Part shown: piece after piece, positions 41,270 to 64,000 of the stretch
Position numbering within the stretch: the first letter of the stretch is position 1
Layout of the letters: each line of letters begins with the position of its first letter
NCBI RefSeq assembly: GCF_963921235.1
Contig: NC_086112.1
Coordinates: forward strand, 35,030,001 to 35,094,000
Direction of reading: 5' to 3'
DNA: 64,000 bases
From: Mobula hypostoma
Lineage: Eukaryota
Notes under the pieces: generated by a model
Database searches by the model: none
What the model was told of the DNA's origin: nothing
What the model saw: only the letters and a program-made list of their open reading frames with translations
Made by a program: the position numbers and the translations under genes

Positions 41270-43313
41270 TATTTGTACAATGGCTGACAGGGGAAGTAAA
41301 GGACAGTATAAAAATAAAAGAGAAGAAGTATAACATAGCAAAGATGAGTGGGAAGCCAGAGGATTGGGAAACTTTTAAAGACCAACAGAAGGTAACTAAA
41401 AAGGCAATATGTGGAGAAAAAATGAGGTATGATGGTAAACTAGCCAAGAATATAAAGGAGGGTAGTAAAAGCTTCTTTAGGTATGTGAAAAGGAAAAAAA
41501 TAATTAAGACCAAAACTGGGCCCTTGAAGAAAGAAACGGGTGAATTTATTATGGGGAACAAGGAAATGGCAGACTGGGTGAACAGGTACTTTGAATCTAT
41601 CTTCACTGGGGAAAACGCAAACAATCTCCTAGATATAATAGTGGCCAAAGGACCTAGGGTAATGGATGAACTGAAGGAAATTTATATTAAGCAGGAAATG
41701 GTGTTGGATAGACTGTTGGGTCTGAAGGCTGATAAGTCCCCGAGACCTGATGGTCTGCATCCCAGGATACTTAAGGAGGTGGTTTTAGAAATTGTGGACA
41801 CATTGGTAATCATTTTCCAATGTTCTATAGATTCAGGATCAGTTCCTGTGGATTGGAGGGTGGCTAATGTTGTCCCACTTTTCAAGAAATGAAGGAGAGA
41901 GAAAACAGGGAATTATAGACCAGTTAGCCTGACGTCAGTGGTGGGAAAGATGCTGGAGTCAATTATAAAAGACGAAATTACGACACATTTGGATAACAGT
42001 AATAGGATAGGTCCAAGTCAGCATGGATTTACGAAGGGGAAATCGTGCTTGACTAGTCTTCTAGAATTTTTTGAGGATGTAACTATGAAAATGGACAAGG
42101 GAGAGCCAGTGGATGTAGCGTACCTGGACTTTCATAAAGCCTTTGATACAGTCCCACGTAGGAGATTAGTGGGCAAAATTAGGGCACATGGTATTGGGGG
42201 CAGAGTACTGACATAATTGAAAATTGGCTGGCTGACAGGAAACAAAGAGTAGCAATTAACAGGTCCCTTTCGGAATGGCAGGCGGTGACCAGTGGGGTAC
42301 CGCAGGGTTCAGTGCTGGGTCTGCAGCTGTTTACAACATACATTAATGATTTAGATGAAGGGATTAAAAGTTACATTAGCAAATTTGCAGATGACACAAA
42401 GCTGGGTGGCAGTGTGAAATGTGAGGAGGATGTTACGAGAATGCAGGGTGACTTGGACAGGCTGGGTGAGTGGGCGGATGCATGGCAGATGCAGTTGAAT
42501 GTGGATAAATGTGAGGTTATCCACTTTGGTGGCAAGAACAGGAAGGCAGATTACTATCTGAATGGCGTCAAGTTAGGAAAAGGGAAAAGTACAACAAGAT
42601 CTAGGTGTTCTTGTACATCAGTCACTGAAAGCAAGCATGCAGGTACAGCAGACAGTGAAGAAAGCTAATGGCATGCTGGCCTTCATAACAAGGGGAATTG
42701 AGTATAGGAGCAAAGAGGTCCTTCTGCAGCTGTACAGGGCCCTGGTGAGACCACACCTGGAGTATTGTGTGCAGTTTTGGTCTCCAAATTTGAGGAAGGG
42801 CATTCTTGCTATTGAGGGAGTGCAGCGTAGGTTCACAACATTAACTCCTGGGATGGCGCGACTGTCATATGTTGAAAGATTGGAGTGGCTGGGCTCGTAT
42901 ACACTGGAATTTAGAAGGATGAGAGGGGACCTGATTGAAACATATAAGATTGTTAAGGGATTGGACACGCTGGAGGCAGGAAGCATGTTCCCACTGATGG
43001 GTGAGTCCAGAACCAGAAGCCATAGTTTAAGAATAAGGGGTAGGCCATTTAGAACGGAGTTGAGGAAAAACTTTTTCACCCAGAGAGTGGTGGGTATGTG
43101 GAATGCTGTGCCCCAGAAGGCTGTGGAGGCTAAGTCTCTGGATGCTTTCAAGAAAGAGATGGATAGAGCTCTTAAAGATAGCGGAATCAAAGGTTATGGG
43201 GATAAGGCAGGAACTGAATACTGATTGTGGATGATCAGCCATGATCACAGTGAATGGCGGTGCTGGCTCGAAGAGCCGAATGGCCTACTCCTGCACCTAT
43301 TGTCTATTGTCTA
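41270..43313 (+). mobile_element. CR1 LINE, about 2 kb, 5'-truncated, with full RT domain; inactive
   Basis: ORFs 41266..43224: PDGLHPRILKE, QHGFTKGKSCLT, YLDFHKAFD, SGVPQGSVLG, FADDTK; stops at 41890 and 42214, frameshift near 42585; (ctattgt)n tail. Confidence 0.95.
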
Positions 43314-45072: not shown

Positions 45073-45405
45073 ATAGTCATAGTCATAGTCATACTTTATT
45101 GATCCCATAGGAAATTGGTTTTCTTTACAGTTGCATCATAAATAATTAAATAGTAATAAAACCATAAATAGTTAGATAGTAATATGTAAATTATGCCAGG
45201 AAATAAGTCCAGGACCAGCCTATTGGCTCAGGGTGTCTGACCCTCCAAGGGAGGAGTTGTAAAGTTTGATGGCCACAGGCAGGAATGACTTCCTATGACG
45301 CTCTGTGCTGCATCTCGGTGGAATGAGTCTCTGGCTGAATGTACTCCTGTGCCCAACCAGTACATTATGTAGTGGATGGGAGACATTGTCCAAGATGGCA
45401 TGCAA
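45073..45405 (-). mobile_element. L2/Rex-like LINE 3' end with (GACTAT)n tail
   Basis: ORF 45220..45405 HPLH..TERHRKSFLPVAIKLYN. Confidence 0.85.
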
Positions 45406-48702: not shown

Positions 48703-51700
48703 CAGGGGTCCCCCAATCTTTTTTTGCACCGTGGATCAGTTTAATATTGACAATATTCTTGCGGACCAGCCGACCGGGGGGTTGGGGGGTGGTGTTCGAG
48801 TAGGGTTAAACTCACCTCAACATGTCTTTTGCAGTTAGGGTTGCCAACTTTCTCACTGCCAAATAAGGGACAAAAGTAGCAGTTAAATACAGGACAGTGT
48901 TTACCCTGAGAAAGACTACCATGTGTGTACCACTTGTGTGCGCATGTGCCGATTTTTTTCCTCAAATCGGTTTTGGCTTAATCTTCCCGACTACACTGTA
49001 CATACATTATTTCTACTTTATATAGGCTGTGTATTTATTGTATCATTCCTGCTTTTACTATATGTTAGTGTTATTTTAGGTTTTATGTGTTACAGGTGTC
49101 CCCCATTTTTCGAACGTTCGCTTTACAACACCTCGCTGTTACAAAAGACCTGCATTAGTTCCCTGTTTTCGCTAACAGAAGATGTTTTCACTGTTAGGAA
49201 AAAAGGCAACCCGTGCCCAAGCAGCCAAGCTCCTCCCCCGGAACTGCATTCTAGCCGCCATTGCTTAAACACGTGCTTTATCTCGATTTATTTTGTGCAT
49301 CCGTTAGCAAGATGAGTTCCAAGGTATCGGAAAAGCCGAAAAGAGCTCGTAAGGGTGTTACGCTTAGTGTAAAACTAGACATAATTAAGCGTTTCGATCA
49401 TGGTGAACGAAGTAAGGACATTGTCCGCGCGTTGAACTTGCCTGCATCCACTATTCGCACTATCTATGCGCAGAGAGAAAGAATCTTTAAAGCTGCTGGT
49501 GTTACTGTTGGTTCTGCTCGTAGCAAAGTGGTCTCTCTTAGTTGGCATCCAATAATGGATAACATGGAAAGTCTACTGCTTGAGTGGATTGATGGGTGTA
49601 CAAAGCGTGGTGTTCCGTTAAGTTTTCTTATACTTGAGAAATCAGTCAGTCTTTTTAATAAGCTGAAACAGAAAGCACTGGCTGATGGTGATGAACGTAT
49701 TGTGAAAGTGGAATTTAAAGGTAGTCATGGATGGTTTGATCGGTTTCTGAGGCGAGGACAGCTTCATAGTTTAATGTTTACTGGAGCGAGTGCTTCGGCT
49801 GATACTGAAGCTGCCCAAAAGTTCCCAGCAGAACTGAAGAATATCATTACAGAAGGTGGTTATTCGTATAAGCAAGTGTTTAACTGTGATGTAACTGCAA
49901 TTTTTTGGAAAAAAATTGCTGAGTAAGACATTTATTTCGAAAGAAGAAAAGCAGGCTAAGGGACACAAGGCATCGAAGGACAGGTTTACCCTAATGCCTA
50001 TTATTAACGCCACTGGTGATGCTGTCCTTAAGCCTCTACTAGTGTACCATTCAGAAAATCTGAAGGCACTTAAAGACGTTGATAAGAAAACACTTCCTGT
50101 TGTGTTCCGTTCACATCCAAGCAGTTGGAATACCCGAATGCTTTTTTCTGAGTACATGAGCGATATGTTAGTCCTTTTGTTGAAAAATACTGTAGAGAAA
50201 ATACACCTCGATAATAGGTGTCTTGTGATTGTCGATAATTGTGGTGCTCATCCGCCTGGCATTACCGAGTATGGCGATAACATTCATGTTGCGTTCTTAC
50301 CGCTGAATACGACATCGTTGCTGCAGCCGTGCGACAAAGGCCGAATAGCCACAATTAAGACTTACTATACACAAAATGTGATGCATTTTATTGTAAGTGC
50401 CATTGACAGAGAGGGCAACTCCGAAGCATCTTTGCGAGAGATCTGAAAAGACTACAATATAAAATTGGCAATCGCCAACATTGGAGATGCTCTCGATAGG
50501 CTAACAGTCTCGATGAGAAATGGCTTTTGGAGGAAACTCTGTCCCGAAGCAGTGAACAATTTTAAAGGCATCGAACCATCAACAATAAATACGGCAATAG
50601 TGAGCTTGGCTAAGGAGGCTGGGTTTATGGAAGTTGACGAAGATGATGTTGAAGAGGTTTTGGCATCCCATGACCAAGAACTGACAGATGAAGAGCTGAT
50701 GCAATTGCAAGAGGAAAGGATAACAATCGAAACCGAACACAGTAGCGAACGGCCTGAAAGTGAAGTCGTCCAGGAACTGAACGTGAAGCAATTGTGTGAG
50801 ATTTGTGCTGCAATTGACAGTGCTGCAATGATTGCAGAGAAGTATGACTTTAATTTTGAAAGGGTACGTAGGTTTAGGGCAGGTTTGCAGGATGTTTTGA
50901 GTACTTACAAAGAACTGTATGATAGAAAAATGCGCGAGGCTAAGCAGTCAAGCATACTGTCCTTTTTCAAGCCTTGCACATCAGTCACAGCAGACAACGA
51001 ACCTCAACCTTCGACAACAAGGCAGGCAGACATAGAAGAAGGTGACCTACCTGCCCTGATGGAAACAGACAACGATGAGATGACACCCCAGTCTCCTCTA
51101 CCTCCCACCACCCCAACCTCCGACATCTCTGTCTAACACACCATCCCAATTCCCGTAACTGAAACTATACTGTACATGCATTATTTCTACTTTATATAGG
51201 CTGTGTATTTTTGTGTTATTTAGTATGATTTGTTGCTTGGTATGATTTGGCAGCCTCATAGCTTAAAGGTTACTGGAGAGAGTGTTTCTGCCGAGAGCGC
51301 CTGCTCCGACAGCGCTTGCGTGAGATTTTCACTGCGCTAGACAGTGCTTCAGTGATTGCAGAGAAGTATTTCTACTTTATATAGGCTGTGTATTTATCAT
51401 ATCATTCCCACTTTTACTATATGTTACTGTTGTTTTAGGTCTTATGCGTTATTTGGCATGATTTTGTAGGTTTTTTTTGGGTCTGGAAACGCTCAAAAAT
51501 TTTTCTCATATAAATTAATGGTAATTGCTTCACTTTACGCCATTTCGGCACGAAAGGGATCATAGGAACGCTCTACCTTAGCGGTAGAAATACGGGACAA
51601 GGGCAGTCCCATATGGGACAAACCAATTTAGTCCAATGTGCGGGATGTCCCAGCAAATACGGGACAGTTGACAACCCTATGTTCAAATTCAACAGTGCGT

Positions 51701-52529: not shown

Positions 52530-53285
52530 AGCTCGTCAAAGGTTTTGGTTTGCATGCTAGCCAGACAAATCAATCCACAAATAAGTACATCAAGGTAGTA
52601 CAAAAGCAAAAAAATATATAGCACACTGATACAGTTACAAACTAAATACAGAGTAGGTAGGTTAATACAGTGCAAAGACCGTGATGAGAGAGAATGAAAG
52701 ATCAAGAGTTCAACTTTATCGTGTAACAGATCAGTTTGAGGATTTTTAACAGGAGGACAGAAGCTGTCCTGAGCCTGGCGGTAAATATTCTCAAACTTTT
52801 GTATCTTCTGCCTGATGGAAGGGGGTAAAACAGAGAATGACTGATTTGGGAGGTATACTTGATAATGTTGGCTGCTTTTCCAAGGAGATGGAAAAGTGCA
52901 GGCATTCAGTGGATTGGAGGCTGATTTTTGTGATAAACCAGGTTAAGTAAACAAACCTCTGCAAGTTCTTGTGGACTGAGGCAGGACAGTTGCCAATTAC
53001 CAAACTATGATGCAGATTGGTGCATTCTGTGGTGCATCCACCAAGATGCAACACAGAGCGTCATAGGAAGTCATTCCTGCCTGTGGACATCAAACTTTAC
53101 AACTCCTCCCTTAGAGGGTCAGACACCCTGAGCCAATAGGCTGGTCCTGGTCTTATTTCCTGGCATAATTTACATATTACTATTTAACTATTTATGGTTT
53201 TATTACTATTTATTATTTATGGTGCAACTGTAACGAAAACCAATTTCACCCAGGATCAATAAAGTATGACTATGACTATGACTAT
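52530..53285. mobile_element. Old L2/Rex-like fragment (minus strand) interrupted by a younger plus-strand 3' end (53038-53285)
   Basis: ORF 52702..52905 FYPLPSGRRYKSL; 53038-53285 is near-identical to the reverse complement of 45073-45320. Confidence 0.75.
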
Positions 53286-56039
53286 CTGTAAAAATTGGCG
53301 AGGGTCACGAGGGAAATGCTGAATTTCCATCTGAGAAGTGGAGGTGCTGATACGCTTTCTTGGCCATACCATCTTCAGTACAAGGCTAGATCAGGATAAA
53401 TTTTTGGTGATATTTGCACCCAGAAACTTAAAGCATTCAACAATTTCCACTTTAGTAGGATGGTAATTGACGGGGATGTGAACTGACTGGTTAGCAGCCT
53501 ACCTAATTACTTACAGTGATTTTACTTGAAAAATAATCTAATAGCTGTGAATAATTTTGTGTGTGTGAAGGATAACACACATTCACATCTGATTGATATT
53601 TATATTCTAATATTAGGATATAAGGTTGAATTGTTTTTATTAACCTGCTCCAGCATCTCTTTAAGAGCTCAACATACAGTACATAGAAAAAAATTGTTTT
53701 GAAACTGTGTAACAGAGAAGGAGCAGATGGTCTACTCTTTACTGAAGGGTTACTGATTACTATCCTTGTTATTTGCTGCAAGTGATTTTAAATCTGATGA
53801 CAGATTTAGGTTTCATGTAATTGGAAGGGGTTGGTTTCTATTATTAGATTTTTTGTCACTGTGAAGATGCTTTTGCCATGTTTAAAAGAAATGATTTAAG
53901 ATGATGCTTTATTGTCATATAGTTTAATGGCAAGTCATACATCAAATGAAAGTCTTTCCTGCATACTCTGAGATAACTATATTGTAATGCTTTTTGCTGC
54001 TCTGTCACTGGTATTTATTTTCTCCTAGAACTTGCATGAACAGAGACAACTTTTATACTGTAGTACCTCAAAACCTTCTGATAGTTTTGAATAGTAACAT
54101 AATTTTCAGTATCGGCAGAATTTCTGGGGTTTAACATAATTTTTTGCTTATTTTTTCCTGATCAATTGCATAGTAGTTTCAGTGCTGCTTTAATTCAGTG
54201 CAAAGCTCTATGTTTGTTACAATTAGACACTTGGGATGCCTTTTTGTGTCTTTTAAGATTGTTCAGGCTGCAATAGATTTACTGCAGTGAGTACTGCCAC
54301 CCACTACTATAATAGCAAGGAATATAAAAGAAAAATACAACTAGAAAAATGCTTACAATTTAAAAAAAACTCAACATTGTAAATTACACCAGTAGAAATA
54401 TTCAGTTGGATGTTGAAATCTGGACCAAAATATAAACTTTGGGAAGAACTCTCTATTTTCAAATGGCAAGTGGTGAAAAGTCAGATATTTTCAGAGCAAT
54501 TTGCTGATATATTATTAGCATGCACAAATGGAGAAGAAATATGCATAACAATATTCATTTACTGTGTATTGAATTAATAATTGTATTACTTTTATGCAAC
54601 TAATTATGTTATTATAAAGCAAATCTACCGACAGTTGGTGCACAGGAAATTTACGGATATATGATCCACACAACCAACTTGTTAGTTTAATTTTGATGTT
54701 AGGTTGTGGGATGATTGCAGGTCAAGATACTGAAAGGATAATAATGCCTACCATATAGTGTAATAGTATCTCTAATACTCATTTGAGCCATCATCCTCAC
54801 TTTAATAAAGGACCAGACATTGGAAAACCAATGTTCCCCCTTTATTGCGTTGGGTTGTCAACAAAGTTTATGTGTTAAAAATCCAGTGATAGATCTGAAC
54901 TACGTTTGTACAACCTGCTACCTGCAATTGAGGATGCTTTTGGTAGAACCAAGATGACAATTTAATGAACGAGATGTAGAAAGCAAATGCAAAATGAGGT
55001 ATCTTTATCTAAATCTGATAAAAAACTGAATAAATGTGAAGATGGGGAATGTTTTTGCCTTGATTTTCATGTATTAAAGAGCCAATGATACATTGCCTTT
55101 GTTATTCCAGGTGCTACTTAAACAAGTTGTAAGGAAGCCAGCTTCAGGAAATGCTGCTGAGTATTTTTAAAAAAGCATTAATCATTTTCTTAGTATATGA
55201 CCCCTTGCATTATAGGTTATTTTGCTCCTCAGTAACGGTGCATATTGCAATTTTCTGTAATGTGAGGCTATGTCATTTGCACATGCGTCAGGAAATACAT
55301 ATTGGGGAAAAAGTGTTTATTTACCTTTAAAATTGCATGAAAGTCTATTTTATTCTGTACCTCAAATTTTTGGGTAGTGACTTTTGGTAGTGATTTGGGT
55401 AGGTGTACGTATTTCTGTTAACTGAATGGTTGTAATGGATGGGTCACCTGTATGTGAGTGATAGTTGTTATGATTTGTAACTCTAAAACATAAAAAACTA
55501 ATTACAAGAAAAACAAGGGGGCCAGAAAATACTAGAACTCATGTGCATTCTTAGTTTTTACTTTTAGCAAGACGTGCACATATCACGTGGTGGCGTGATG
55601 ATGAATATCATTCACACACCTGTACATGTAACCCATAACGAATTATTTAAACAAACAAGAATGCTTAATCAAATAATATATTTACAATATTACTCAAATG
55701 CCACTGAAATATTAAATACACAACACTCCCCCTGCTTAGCTATGAAGTCCAACTCAATATAGCATGCATCTCAACTATGTAGTATACTATGTAATGCAAC
55801 TATTATACAAATATCAATAGCATAGTAAATTGTTAAATTGTCCCTTTCAGGCCTAAAGATTTAATCACTGTGGAGGCTTTCTTACTCTTGTGGGATAACA
55901 TCTTTCCTGACAAGGGAGTTCACTCTGCTTAGCAGGTGAGACTGAATGTGAAACAATCTCAGGTTCTGGGACCTCCTCCATGGTGGTTGTAGGAGTTGAC
56001 TCTGAGTCTACAGGAAGTGGTTCTGATGGCACTAAAGCT

Positions 56040-56915
56040 TATTGTCTTTCTCTCAGTTTTTCTCTCTGGATCTATTTGGACCCTTACTTTTCTCCTGGTC
56101 CCAGCTTCTTTCTTTCTGTTTATCCTGCTCTTTTTCTTTCTCACGTTCCTTCTCTCTTTCACGCCTTTCTTTTTCTCGCTCACATTCTTTCTCTCTATCT
56201 CTTCTCCCCTTTTCAACTTATTGGCTTTCTTTTTCTTGCCTTCCTTTTTCTTTAGGTCCTTGTCTCTGAGTTTGCTAATGTCTTGAGAAATTAGGTCTCA
56301 TTTAACCTCTTCTATTTCCATAGTTCTTATGTCATCCTCTTTCTCTTCCTTATTCTTCTTTCTCGGATGTGCATCTTGATCTTGGGAAGGTGCATTTAGT
56401 TCACTCTTCTTAATCCTTCCTTTGCTGCCTTTACGATCTGATTTCTCCTTTTGGCTTCCTCATTCACAGCATCATCTGATGATTCCTTTGTTCTTGTATA
56501 TTCATTGATTTTGTTCTTTCTGGCCTTCCATTCATCCAGCTGAGCTTTGGTCTTTGCATCTACTTTTACAAGCAGCTTTTTGTCTTCCACTTGAAGTTCA
56601 TGTAATAACTTAATGCATGCAGACTGTATTCTGGTTCTTTATAGTCACAAAAGCTGAAAGCTTGCAACTTTCCGAAAATTCCTTGACACTCTTCCTGCTG
56701 AGAACCAAGCCACATCTCTCAAGTAACTGTGATTAACATATCAGAAGCTTTTTTACAAAAACTGTTGTAATCAGTCCACTGTTTTCAACAGTTTCATACC
56801 GTCTGAGCAGCAAGGTCCTTCCTTGGTCCAATATGATTTCCACCCAGAAGCACAGAGTTTGGCACCAACACCTGTTTGCCCTCTGTTGGGCAACAGTTCA
56901 TGGTGTACAGCATGG
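56040..56915 (-). pseudogene. RBM25: Intronless RBM25 fragment (RRM to Arg/Glu-rich region) inside the Gypsy element
   Basis: KKLLVKVDAKTKAQLDEWKA; upstream remnants TTVFV, KASDMLI, CGLVLS, GKLQAF.FC.YKEPE; RE-rich tail; frameshifted and contiguous without introns. Confidence 0.85.
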
Positions 56916-59029
56916 AGACAGTTGTGGCATAATCCAGTACCTTTCTTCATTTGCTTTCAGTTGACTCTATTACAGGGGATGCAGCATGCCAAGTAGTGGA
57001 TGGATCTCCAATCAGATTGTAGTTATCTCAAACAATCAGGTCCCCACAATGCTGGCCATCCTGTTTTTTTTACTGCATACAAACCCAATATGACTTGCTG
57101 GCTGTTGTATTTCACTGAATTACAAATGTCATTCCCACAGGGGTTATATTTTCTCCAGTATAAGTTCTTAGTTGGATATCTGCAAATCATTTTGTGGAAT
57201 GGCTGAAACAGCTGAGCCAGTGTCCAAGTCCATTTTAATTAGTTCACTGTTCACTTGGCTACCCAGTCCTTTGTCACTTTAATCATTATCAAATTTTTTC
57301 ATCAACAGCATGCAGAATAGTTCTCTTTTAGAAACTGCAACTTGACTTTTAGTCTTTTTCTCTTCTCTGTTTAGTCCATTTATTTTTGTCTGCCCAACAT
57401 GCTCTTCATATGTGTCCAACTTTGGTGCAGTTTCTGCAAGTTTTGCCTTTAAACCTGCATTGGTCTGGTGTATGTCTGGGGTATGTGTATCTGAGCCCCT
57501 GCCACAATGGTAACAGAGTTTGTTTGGTCAGGCCGGTTTCTGATTAGGCACTGCAAATTTGTTCATGCTCACTTTAATTACTTATTGCAACTCAATTGCA
57601 TCACTATCTACTGTTTCCATTGATACAGCTATTTCAACTGCTCTTTTAAATGTAAGTTGTGCTTCAGCTAGGAGCCATTTTCAAATGTGGATCATAATGT
57701 GTGAGTACAGTGTCTGATGTCACCATTTCCTTTGTCTTTTAGAAAGCCATCTGGCACTGTTTTGTCCTTTGCCATTCCTCTCCAATCTGTAGTAATGAGT
57801 TCAAGGTGTAGAACACAGTAACCAGGTTTGGCAGGAGCCAGTTATTGTAATTAACAAATCCTAAAATATTCCAGAACTGTGACACGTCCTTTGGCCTTAG
57901 GGCATTGAATTTTCACAGCACACTTGTGCAATACTTGTGCGTCAATGGAGTGACTACAGTAAGTGGTGCTTGGTTTAAAGAATTCATGCTTGTTGCATCT
58001 TGCTCTGAGCTCATAATCTTCTAATCCCTTAAAGACTACCTTGAGATTTTGGAGGTGTTCCTCATTATTTCCATTAAAATGGTGTCATCCAAGTGCCTGG
58101 GCAGCCTTGCAGCACCTTGTCCATAGCTTTCTGCTAGAGTGCAGGTGCAGATGCTTCTCCAAAAATAAGCTTATTATAGCGATTAAAGCCTTATGTGACT
58201 GTTTATAGTGAAGAACACTTTGGACTCTTCTTCTAACTTCATCTGTAGGTGGGCCTCAGTTAAGTCCACTTTGCTGAAGTGTTTCTCTTCAGAAAGCTCT
58301 GCTAAGATATCCTCTATCCCGGGCAGAGGATAGTGATCTACTTTCAATACAGGGTTGATAGCAACCCTAAAACACCACAGATCCTGACAGACTCCTCCTT
58401 CTTGGCTTCTGACTGCTAGGAGCCGCTTATGAATGCTTTCTGGTAAGATTCTACAAGCTAAACTATCTCTCAGTGCATCATTAAGTCTATCACTGAGCTG
58501 ACAATGCTCATACAATCTCATCAATTCAGCGCTGAAATGGACTCCCCTTAATTCTGCTTATGAAACCTAAGGTGTTCTACAATCAACAATGGTTTCGATT
58601 CTAAATGTTCCTGCATTACTTTCATGATATCAGCAACATTCATTTCAGGTGGTTTGATTCTAAGCAAACTGTATGCCTTTAAATCCAATGCGGTCAGTAA
58701 AATTGGTACTTGCTTCTTATTGGCTATAACATTTGCTTTAAATTACTGCTCAATCTATTCACTATATAATATCCAGTTCTCTATTGTGCAGTCAAATTTA
58801 TCAATCCTTCAGATGTAGCCAGCTATTTCTGCTCGATTTTAAATGATTATGCTGCTTTTTTTAACTCAATTTTTTTCTTTTGTGAAGGAAATGTGCTACT
58901 CTGAAGAAAAAAATGTGCCTTGCTTTTTATTAAACTAGAATGTTTCACCACGTTTCAACAGCTAGGTAGTCGTCTCAGGTTTGCTTAAAATTTTCTCGTC
59001 GGCACTGTTATGTCTTGCAACTCCAAAAC

Positions 59030-59520
59030 AGTGTTAGCTGTGAGAAGGATGCTAAGAGGATGCAGGGTGACTTGGATAGGTTAGGTGAGTGGGCAAATTC
59101 ATGGCAGATGCAATTTAATGTGGATAAATGTGAGGTTATCCACTTTGGTGGCAAAAACAGGAAAACAGATTATTATCTGAATGGTGGCCGATTAGGAAAA
59201 GGGGAGGTGCAATGAGACCTGGGTGTCATTATACACCAGGGTTTGAAAGTGGGCATGCAGGTACAGCAGGCAGTGAAAAAGGCGAATGGTATGCTGGCAT
59301 TCATAACAAGAGGATTCGAGTACAGGAGCAGGGAGGTACTATTGCAGTTGTACATGGCCTTGGTGAGACCACACCTGGAGTATTGTGTGCAGTTTTGGTC
59401 CCCTAATCTGAGAAAAGACATTCTTGCCATAGAGCGAGTGCAAAGAAGGTTCACCAGATTGATTCCTGGGATGGCAGGACTTTCATATGATGAAAGACTG
59501 GATCGACTAGGCTTATACTT
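59030..59520 (+). mobile_element. CR1 fragment within the Gypsy 5' LTR
   Basis: ORFs 59015..59215 and 59243..59572 WQMQFNVDKCEV, LVRPHLEYCVQFWSP. Confidence 0.92.
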
Positions 59521-60048: not shown

Positions 60049-60150
60049 TAACGAATGTGCATACTTAGTTTGCACTTTTACACGAAATATGGACATATCA
60101 CGTGGTGGCTTGATGACATTTGCCATTCACTTACTTTTATATATAACCTG

Positions 60151-61006
60151 TGTTACGAGAATACACATAAAATTAAGATGTTTGCTGGCCTGGGCTAGCA
60201 TCAGTGGCATCAGCAGTTGGTCTGCCACCTGCCCTCAGGGGAAGGAGAGATAAGGAACAATGGAGCAGCGTCTGGAGATGTGTAATGAAGGGACGTGGGA
60301 GAAAGAGCTGTCTGGAGCGGCTCCCCCTTTGAACCCTGAACTGTTTGAAGTGATGGACAGGCGATACCCCAGCAGGGGGATAAAAAGGGGACAGGTTCGC
60401 TAAGACAGAAACACACGCCACCTGAGGTAACGAGACCCTGGAAGCTGTGCGCCTCTCACGAGTGGGTGAGAAGTATCAGACAACGACAAGGGTGGAAAGG
60501 TACGATCAGCGGGAACCCGGTGTGTGTCCGCCCTTGCCTGGGTGCCGGGTTCACTGCAGAGGATTGACCACATCTGGAGGAGGGGTCACAGTCGGTGACC
60601 TCAGGTGACATCACCAAGGACCCGCCCAAAAGTTGCTTGTGAGCAATCTCGCTGGTCTGTGAGTGAAGCAGTGTTCTGAATGATCAGTTGTTCCTGTACT
60701 CTCTCTCTCTCCCCCCACGTTGTCCCTCGCCATGGCAACGATTACTGCGAACTGAACTGGACTGAACTTTGAGTCATTTTGAAATTTGGTCATTTACCCC
60801 CTAGACAACGATAGAGCTTGATTGATGCTGTTATCTTAATTCTGTGCACATGTGTGTTTATCATCGCTGAACTGTTGCACTTATTATCCTTTCGATTACT
60901 GTGTTGCTTGTTTCTTTAATAAAACTTTCTTAGTTCTAGTACTCCAGACTCCAACTGAGTGATCCATTTCTGCTGGTTTGGCAACCCAGTTACGGGGTAC
61001 ATAACA
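60151..61006 (+). mobile_element. Solo LTR (856 bp) inserted in the Gypsy 5' LTR
   Basis: TGTTA...TAACA termini; exact TSD CCTG (60147-50 and 61007-10); AATAAA near 60918; CpG still retained. Confidence 0.88.
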
Positions 61007-62629
61007 CCTGTAATGAGTTATTTAAACAAACAAAAATGCTTAATCAAACAATATATTTACAACACTACTCAAATACTACTTAAATATTAAATACACAATA
61101 GTTTTAACCCATTAAGATTTCTTTTCACTGTTTTAAGAAACAATGTTTAGAAGCTGACAGTAAACAATGTAATTTAAATGCATTAGATAATTTAACTAAT
61201 TAATATTTGCTGTGTTTTTAAAATAAGAATAAATTACTGTATGTGGCCAAGTTCTGTGTTAATTCCTAAGTAAAAGGTATGGTGTGTTAGGTGGGGGTGG
61301 TTTGTAAAATTTAATATCCCAACTTGATGGAAACCAACTAACTTGAACAACGGACAAACTAAAAGAGTATATAGCTGAAGATTTAATTTTATCCATAAGT
61401 TTGAAAGATTTAAAGAATACACTGGACAACTTTTTTTCAAAAGTGTTGCTTTCTCAAATTTTTTTTTGTTTATGATGGACTGCTTGAAACTGAACACAAA
61501 TATAATTTCAGACTACTTGTATCACATAGGAATTTGGAGAATCAAGTAAATAACTTGTGTTGAATAAAATGCATTTAATTGCATAATATTGCTGACTTTT
61601 GCAATAGTTCAATAGAGCTAAAAATGTTATGTTGATAATTTTAATTTGTACTCAAATGTCTGAGGCTCCTCGCCTCAGCACTGGTCACCGGTGAAGGTGA
61701 ATGAATGCCATCTGCTGCCAGGGCATTGGGCTCAGATCTACAAGACGTCAACATGCACTACCTGTGATTGCAATCTAGCAGTGTATTGAGGGAATAGAAT
61801 TCCTTTTGATTTATAAGGATGTCCTGCTGTTAGTATGCTCACAGGACAATATGGGCAAAGGGGTGTCTCATTCTGCTTTGCTGTCTCTGTGATAAACAAG
61901 ATAAAGCCCTTGTATAGAGAATCTCCAGGCTCGGTCTCCAACAGTAGCTATTTTCTTGTATTTATAAAAGATCAGAGTGCACAAAATCATATTGGCATTC
62001 ACCCTGAACTTTATAACCTTTATGAAGGGAAAAGGTGGGAATATCAGCATAATAGGTACAGTGCTTTAGCTTTAGCTAGATTTCTATAGTGTAAACCAGC
62101 TAGATGACAAACACCCAATTAACAAATTTATCACAGTAATTGCCTGAAGTATTTGTTAGATAAATACACAGTCTAAGCAGGTACAGTGTTGCTGGACTAA
62201 ATGTCTAGTCGGACTGTTTCAGTGCATTTTGCATGACATCCTCTTAACTACCTTGAATCTCTTAACTCAGGTCTGTATTTAAAGTGGAAAGTGGTGCTTA
62301 AGTGTTAAAGGCAGTTTTGGTTAAATAATTTATATTCGTTAATGCTATAGTTTTGCACTTCACAGCTCCTTTTCAACTTTTCTGTTTCCTGATGATTATA
62401 ATGCTACAGCCTGTTAAACAGTATTGAGCTTTGCAATCCTTGGATGTTTGAATAATAATTTCTTGCTAACTTGTTTTGCTTTTACCAATTATCTTTATAT
62501 TCTAGATTATTCTTGTGAACTTTTTTAGGGTTATTTTTACAGTATGAAATTTGGGGCAGTGCAGTAACATAGTGGTTAGCGCAATGCTTTACAGTGCCAG
62601 TAGTCAGTCAGCCAGTCAGTGGGTACCGT

Positions 62630-64000
62630 CCCGAATCCGGGGTTGGCAGCTATGCACCTCCATCTTCTTCGATCCTGTGCTCTTTTTCTGGCCTCAGCAT
62701 AACTCAACCCAGTCCATTGCCTCACATTATCGTACCAAGTGGTTCGCTGCCTTCCTCTTTCCCTCTTTCCTTCTATCATCCCTTCCAATAACAATTTCTG
62801 CAGTCCACCACCTCTTAACAAGTGCCCGGCATATTCCAGCTTCCTTTTCTGCACATTCTTCAGCAACTCCTTTTCTCTCCTCACTCTTCAACACTTCCAT
62901 ATTACTGACCTTCATCGCCCATCTAATTTTCTGCATTCTCCTTAAACACCACATTTCAAATGCCTCCAATTGTCCTTGCACTTCCTTGCATAAGGTTCAT
63001 GATTCGACTCCATACAACAGACTGCTCCAGACATAGCATTTCCAAATTCTACAACGCAGCCCAAAGTCCAACCTCTTGCCACACAGCACGTCACTCAGGC
63101 TCCAGAGCGTTGATCTTGCAATCTCAATTCTTTGTCTAATTTCTGTATCACATTTCCCATCCTTTGTGACCATCTGTCCCAAGTACACAAACTTCTTGAC
63201 TTGCTGTATGCCTACACCGTTAATTTTGATACTGATTTTGGGGATTTCTTCCTTCGTCTTTGCAGCATTTATTTTCATTCCAAATCGTTCTCCTTCAGCA
63301 TTTATCTTATCTACTATTCTGAGTAACTCGTCCTTAGTCTCGGCTAACAAAACTGAATCATCTGCATACCTCAAGTTGTTTACCGTCACTCCACCAATTT
63401 GGATACCAACTTTATCGTTCAACACCCTGAAGATTACCTCTGAGTAAATGTTAAATAATAAAGGGGAGATAATGCAGCCCTGGCGAACCCGTTTTTGGAT
63501 CTCAACTTCCGGTGAATTCCCACCACTAGTTCTTATTACTGCCTTCTGATGCCAGTACAGACGCGCAATCAGTCGAACATCTTGCCCATCCAGCCCCAAT
63601 GAGTTTAGGCAATTGACCAGCTGTTCATGATTGACTCAGTCAAAAGCTTTTTTGTAATCCAGGAAGCACAGGTAAATGTTTTTTTTTTCTGGACCTCGTT
63701 CCACAATCGTTTGCAAATTGAAAATCCCTTCACAGGTACCCTAACCCAGTATAAATCTGCCCTGGCACTCATTAATTTCATTAAGGACTGTCCTTTTTAT
63801 TCTGCTGAAAAGTATTAATAACAAGATCTTGGAGGCATGACTTATAAGACTTATAGTTCTAAAGTCTGAGCATTTCGTGCTCTTACTTTTCTTTGGGATC
63901 ATGGCAAACTCTGACACCACAAAATCTGTAGGCCACTTTACTGTTGAGTAGATTGTATTGCAAAGCCTCGTGATCGCCTCAAACTCTGAGTCGCCAAGGC
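62630..64000 (-). mobile_element. RTE-clade LINE (RT domain and 3' end), continuing past the window edge
   Basis: ORF 62997..63599 RVRQGCIISPLLFNIYSE, NNLRYADD, FVYLG; ORF 62576..62884 LEGMIEGKRERGRQR. Confidence 0.92.

Follow-up and report, generated by a model that had tools for sequence, protein, structure and literature searches.

The closest described counterparts of the element analysed here are the LTR-mediated retrocopies of Tan et al. (2016; PMC5131818), for which that account gives a median of 6 bp for the words shared at the junctions and, for secondary copying in flies, 18 sites for nine retrocopies. As characterised there, such retrocopies are intron-free partial mRNAs that replace internal open reading frames (ORFs), share words with the element at both junctions, carry neither poly(A) nor a target-site duplication (TSD) at the cargo, are often in frame, and are re-copied by secondary retroposition as non-autonomous elements. 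Maize Bs1, in the description of the same paper, is likewise an LTR element with host exons and with copies that share switch points, but it has 1-5 copies, draws on three donor genes and was suggested to be protein-coding. In crocodilians, a non-mammalian vertebrate group, endogenous retroviruses (ERVs) carry ancient LTR-type captures of KIT-ligand and nectin3 mRNA that are found across species and, by the report of Chong et al. (2014; PMC4299795), have 9 and 6 copies with intact ORFs under purifying selection. The bat element HelibatN3, with the 5' region of NUBPL, is a non-autonomous vertebrate element that brought a host fragment to about a thousand copies; as presented by Thomas et al. 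(2014; PMC4224331), it made its capture at the DNA level by rolling-circle transposition, taking promoter, exon and intron.

Here we describe a Gypsy element in a 64,000-nt stretch of Mobula hypostoma DNA (the window) in which a spliced piece of RBM25 mRNA occupies the place of the reverse transcriptase (RT), RNase H and integrase core. We put at roughly 85% the probability that this piece was captured once, by two microhomology-guided template switches, and was then spread by the enzymes of helper elements as passenger cargo. The locus shares with the retrocopies of Tan et al. all of the features listed above, with words of 7 nt and 8-9 nt at its junctions, and differs from the few insertion sites given there in its at least 994 copies, its cargo-loss subfamilies and its apparently old, multi-species burst. 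In contrast to Bs1 it has one donor and decays neutrally, in contrast to the crocodilian ERVs it is a Gypsy element with part of a gene and no selection seen, and in contrast to HelibatN3 its cargo is spliced mRNA in an LTR element. The mechanism would be the one known from Tan et al., and the scale appears to lie far above the 1-9 copies in the LTR-capture literature compared; the supplementary tables of Tan et al. may hold larger numbers. Tan et al. had a few copies from which to propose a course of one capture followed by non-autonomous spread; here, in a vertebrate, that course would have been run in full, up to four-digit copy numbers, and the donor gene, the parent elements, both switch words and subsequent recombinants can all still be read. 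Our search for literature on an RBM25-carrying Gypsy family found none; subscription journals, Repbase and Dfam lay outside that search.

The RBM25 piece and its Gypsy carrier

The RBM25 piece of the window copy (56929-56039, minus strand; Table 1) runs in the orientation of its carrier and shows 87% identity with the host RBM25 gene over nine exons in spliced form, in agreement with the intronless, co-oriented segment that a first-pass annotation of this DNA had recognised. A query from the RBM25 C-terminus located the intron-bearing host gene at 99.79-99.84 Mb of contig C1 (genome G000); a PWI family search as a route to it gave three matches, none of them matched by RBM25 proteins. For the exon map 140 kb of C1 were taken, in which nine exons were labelled a-i and all eight introns between them are GT-AG. 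The captured piece consists of the final 10 nt of exon a, exons b-h and ~27 nt of exon i. It crosses all eight exon-exon junctions with zero intron sequence and covers 29 kb of the host gene; 138 nt of the Arg/Glu repeat are missing, and stops and frameshifts break the reading frame throughout. The window copy belongs to the long, host-like class of cargo. The protein matches of the frame at 56399-56638 (-), all the named ones among the best 120 of 174, are RBM25, RBM25-like or unnamed RRM proteins, and the best among the matches listed is a shark RBM25-like protein with 73% identity. Exon b, a 48-nt in-frame exon (G000:C1:99832633-99832586), is kept in the cargo copies; the shark protein P0001 contains its peptide, which the three bony-vertebrate RBM25 proteins viewed lack, and the exon is likely lineage-specific or alternative. 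The family copies preserve an old form of the RBM25 transcript that includes it.

Table 1. Parts of the chimeric Gypsy element in the window, from its 3' end to its 5' end.
Feature	Position	Strand	Basis or remark
3' LTR, 260 bp, TG...CA ends	55466..55725	(-)	same ends in family copies
Polypurine tract adjoining 3' LTR	55726..55737	(-)	sequence
Integrase C-terminal tail and 3' untranslated stretch	55738..56038	(-)	P0143 residues 1237-1312; common to RBM25-free siblings
Captured spliced RBM25 mRNA piece	56039..56929	(-)	773/890 identity with spliced host exons
5' switch point, 7-nt word TGCCACA	56923..56929	(-)	common to element and host exon a
Protease and post-protease spacer, decayed	56930..57300	(-)	polyprotein match; upper boundary approximate
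gag, 3' part	57301..57684	(-)	P0143 from residue 143; lower boundary approximate
Misplaced RT piece inside gag	57685..58415	(-)	polyprotein match; weak RVT_1 match
gag, 5' part	58416..58826	(-)	P0143 residues 1-146
Putative primer-binding-site-like motif just inside 5' LTR	58995..59004	(-)	TGG-led motif here in family copies
5' LTR, last 25 nt	59006..59030	(-)	LTR comparison
5' LTR middle piece, LTR positions 93-185	60055..60148	(-)	76% identical to 3' LTR
5' LTR first piece, LTR positions 1-104	60997..61100	(-)	86% identical to 3' LTR

The carrier was assigned to Gypsy by its nearest-protein matches and by domain order. The fish K02A2.6-like Gypsy polyproteins P0142 and P0143 are 42-45% identical over the protease-spacer query, have the same domain order as the parent-type copies of the family, and show no RBM25 domain in their precomputed Pfam lists. 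P0143 matches the window copy in gag (58826-58417 and from 57680), in the protease and spacer (to 56975), in RT (58422-57685) and in the integrase tail (56071-55856), and no counterpart was found in 55400-59100 for its residues 731-1236, where RNase H and the integrase core lie. The first-pass annotation had taken the pol sequence between the two junctions to be absent; this held for RNase H and the integrase core and not wholly for RT, of which a 730-bp piece lies inside gag, whose two parts are joined directly in other family copies. Paired TG...CA LTRs (with the 5' LTR of the window copy in three pieces), a primer site and a polypurine tract are those of a Ty3/Gypsy element. The order protease-RT-RNase H-integrase was found in the parent-type copies L141, L146, L148 and L156, the chimera being without these domains, and an aspartyl protease Pfam match in the family copy L087 lies below the cut-off. 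The RBM25 piece does join post-protease pol sequence as first annotated, at 56929 rather than about 56915 once the exon-a bases are included; beyond its other end follow, as had also been noted, the integrase tail with its match to the fish polyprotein, the polypurine tract and the 3' LTR.

Family size, age and the fate of the cargo

The first-pass annotation had not recognised that the chimera is amplified as a family: a 24-nt motif across the 5' junction occurs at 994 places in the 3.48-Gb genome (up to two mismatches), so that the copy is one of at least 994 that share this junction. The RBM25-free form of the motif occurs at 2,095 places, which makes RBM25-free relatives about twice as common as RBM25-carrying junctions, and reversed controls gave 0. 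With a divergence of 9-11% per copy, ~50-63% of the copies would pass the motif filter; 994 is a floor, and a hand calculation puts the true number of chimeras at 1,500-2,000. (The first-look candidate counts of 2,980, 5,555 and 4,999 are not copy numbers.) A search with the RBM25 fragment (40 candidates scored) gave 49 matches on many contigs, and all 19 other loci taken have the RBM25 piece with Gypsy sequence on at least one side.

For comparison within the family we used 60 chimeras among the first 100 exact junction matches and 20 parent-type loci; the chimeras were picked by an exact 24-nt match, and their shared breakpoint holds by construction. An uninterrupted chimera has the layout LTR-gag-protease-RBM25-tail-LTR and measures about 2.6-3 kb. 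The RT piece is present in 20/20 parent-type loci and in none of the 60 other chimeras, and a scan of five parent-type loci, which covered 50 of 131 stop-free segments, found the integrase core in four of them; in other parent-type copies the tail follows directly on the integrase zinc-finger. Cargo-free non-autonomous siblings that lack the integrase core (L052, L057, L058, L065, L150, L157 and others) are common, and L027 and L121 have a duplicated stretch of the RBM25 cargo. No protease-RBM25 fusion protein is annotated among 37 protein matches (best query cover 49%, lengths 99-317 aa).

The family integrated in the manner of LTR elements. The 5-bp flanks of 15 elements with both ends found (13 chimeric, two parent-type) are 0.55 identical as compared with 0.27 after shuffling (p=0.0002), whereas 4-bp and 6-bp flanks give no signal, and only 5/15 copies have flanks that match at four or more of the five bases. 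The flanks of the window copy match at two of five bases; ACTAT as its TSD was ruled out once the LTR start had been fixed from other copies. LTR pairs, present in 28/60 copies, are 78% identical. The copies are 85.6% identical to the host gene and 80% identical to each other (maximum 88%; 58/60 aligned over at least 300 nt). The per-lineage distance of 0.12-0.13 equals the host-versus-family synonymous distance of 0.13, and the burst therefore likely came soon after the capture. In organisms B, C and E, contigs run from the flank into the LTR of the window copy (in this order, 22 differences over 1.66 kb, 114 over 1.66 kb and 25 over 0.37 kb), so that the window insertion is common to them and older than their split; for organism I, contigs cross the 5' junction, with no flank piece among the matches listed. 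From these comparisons the family appears to be an old burst common to several species. A thousand-plus neutral copies, some of them orthologous, offer a clock for the rate and spectrum of substitution in cartilaginous fishes, and RBM25 copies can mislead RBM25 annotation and read mapping.

The cargo decays neutrally. The ratio of non-synonymous to synonymous differences (N/S) is 4.7 for those found in one copy, 3.5 for those in two or three copies and 2.8 for those in up to a quarter of the copies, with ~3.0 expected under neutrality; in-frame stops number 1.9 per copy on average, and 9/58 copies have none in their aligned codons (frameshifts uncounted). An intact frame under purifying selection was found neither in the window copy nor, by these values, in the family, which is near star-shaped and gives little power to see selection on master copies. 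No host function of the family is indicated, and the RBM25 cargo most likely travels as a passenger. Among the 60 copies, exons b-f were found in 48-59 and exons g and h in 7-11, both of the latter being missing in 34/58. Only two of 48 intermediate-frequency differences are linked, both of them non-synonymous; at both sites the host state prevails among copies with exon g and the derived state among short copies. We read this pattern as a probable stepwise loss of cargo in successive master copies.

That the cargo instead aided the element, either as an in-frame Gag-protease-RRM fusion or as purine-rich RNA that bettered export, packaging or escape from silencing, is unlikely. Such a role would accord with the in-frame 5' junction, with the uneven retention of exons b-f and g-h, with near-fixed differences from the host of 18 synonymous and one non-synonymous, and with the purifying selection reported for the crocodilian captures (PMC4299795). 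However, the 18 synonymous differences (~0.13 per site) equal the neutral distance of one lineage, so that change on the host side suffices, and at the single non-synonymous site it is probably the host that changed, as the shark protein has the residue of the copies. The 18:1 ratio fits constraint on the host gene, and a short constrained founder phase would give the same. Moreover, the two subfamily markers are both non-synonymous changes, relatives without cargo are twice as numerous as the carriers, and repeat-driven deletion would be expected to remove g-h. If the cargo had in truth driven the success of the family, a host splicing-factor domain would have been co-opted by a selfish LTR element.

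Switch points and the probable route of capture

At the 5' switch point, the chimera has the sequence of the parent before TGCCACA and that of host exon a after it. Among 29 RBM25-free siblings, eight did not align; in the 21 alignable ones the word is exact in eight and within one mismatch in nine more, and it forms part of the RBM25-free motif that was matched 2,095 times. In 27 of 30 breakpoint rows (one of which duplicates another locus) the sequence passes from Gypsy into the same exon end, the remaining three being 5'-truncated. The three bases with which the parent would continue stand before exon b in 0/27 of the intact-junction rows; what precedes exon b there is the end of host exon a, intact or decayed, with one row intermediate. 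The 5' junction is therefore internal to exon a, and splicing onto exon b did not produce it. The 3' switch word was read from other copies, the junction having decayed beyond reading in the window copy, and measures 8 nt with integrase-deleted siblings and 9 nt with integrase-complete siblings. The chance per random switch is 7e-4 for at least 7 shared nt and 2.6e-4 for at least 8. Across the 5' fusion the reading frame of gag-protease continues into RBM25; at the 3' fusion the frame does not match that of the tail. The first-pass annotation had asked for junction microhomology and for further Gypsy-RBM25 chimeras; shared words are present at both switch points, and the others have the same 5' breakpoint. 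Cargo-free, integrase-deleted siblings rejoin the tail at the same purine-rich word as the RBM25 capture, which suggests that the word may be a recurrent switch-back site. Short and long copies also end at this word, and independent 3' switches are indistinguishable from later deletions.

A switch inside an exon favours, on the sequences compared, template switching over splicing or LINE insertion. RBM25 mRNA would have been packaged together with element RNA; during minus-strand synthesis RT would have jumped from the integrase tail to exon i and, within exon a, back to the element. Having kept gag and protease together with both LTRs, the primer site and the polypurine tract, the product could have been copied in trans by the RT and integrase of pol-complete relatives. 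Later masters would have lost parts of the purine-rich 3' cargo.

Classical retroviral transduction, in which an element in an RBM25 intron was read through and spliced onto exon b and only the 3' junction came from a template switch, has very little probability left. Splicing would fit the closeness of the 5' junction to exon b, which begins just 10 nt away, and a GT that the parent carries at the corresponding position, but the exon-a bases at the junction, together with the 0/27 rows, largely refute this route. Upstream of exon a, at distances of 38 and 68 kb, the family has left two solo LTR remnants (G000:C1:99876650-99876890 and 99906404-99906635) that could mark such a source; however, both are antisense to RBM25, and the captured introns hold no family remnant, co-oriented or other. 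The analogy that had been drawn with retroviral oncogene capture thus applies to the structure of the chimera, and not to a read-through-and-splice route or to a function of the cargo, for which no support was found.

The cargo edges show no poly(A), 3' UTR or TSD, as first annotated, and both cargo ends are truncated, so that the marks of a LINE-made processed pseudogene (poly(A), an intact 3' end, a TSD around the cargo) are missing. Although LINEs are abundant in this DNA and LINE-inserted retrogenes amplified inside Helitrons are described in PMC4224331, a processed pseudogene that was inserted into or recombined with a resident Gypsy, followed by pol loss and amplification, is the least probable account, in view of these bare edges, of a pol that is replaced and not interrupted, of microhomology at both ends, and of the two further deletions landing on shared words that a DNA-level version needs. 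No 3'-complete RBM25 retrocopy with poly(A) occurs among the 60 copies, as compared with exons a-i. The first-pass preference for RT template switching over LINE retroposition is borne out by the spanned exon junctions, the microhomology at both ends and the shared 5' breakpoint. Of the two observations that it had named as contrary evidence, neither a TSD and poly(A) within contiguous pol nor a single-exon or intron-bearing source was found.

Probable exchanges with relatives, and neighbouring elements

The RT piece in the gag of the window copy is flanked by an imperfect duplication of ~20 nt of gag and has a 4-nt shared word at its return point. The gag-RT-gag arrangement was found in none of 29 other RT loci, and organisms B, C and E likewise have the gag-RT joint. 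That the piece is internally deleted was ruled out, as the translation of siblings shows continuous RT. In L008 (G000:C62:54819195-54823046) the same RT piece lies between the protease and a repeated protease end with RBM25, as if a parent-type RNA had switched back onto a chimeric RNA. From their layout, the gag-RT joint and the L008 joint are likely exchanges with RT-bearing relatives, as trans-mobilisation predicts, the piece in the window gag representing such a further exchange; the gag-RT joint may also have arisen by a DNA-level event after insertion.

The three pieces of the 5' LTR probably represent one LTR split by later insertions. An 847-bp insertion within it (60150-60996) is 93% identical to a stretch in L137 and resembles a younger solo LTR from a different family. 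A LINE RT fragment inserted in the same LTR (59031-59520), which by its motifs we take to be CR1-like, is 81-86% identical to 42410-42878. Fragments of a second LINE-type reverse transcriptase lie at 62548-63998 (-). Decayed DNA-transposase-like frames, presumably Tigger/pogo-like, occupy 49255-51136, with short direct repeats at 48990 and 51164. Finally, 45073-45322 and 53037-53285 are inverted copies of a ~250-bp repeat, and their complementarity of 90-97% points to a recent small element.
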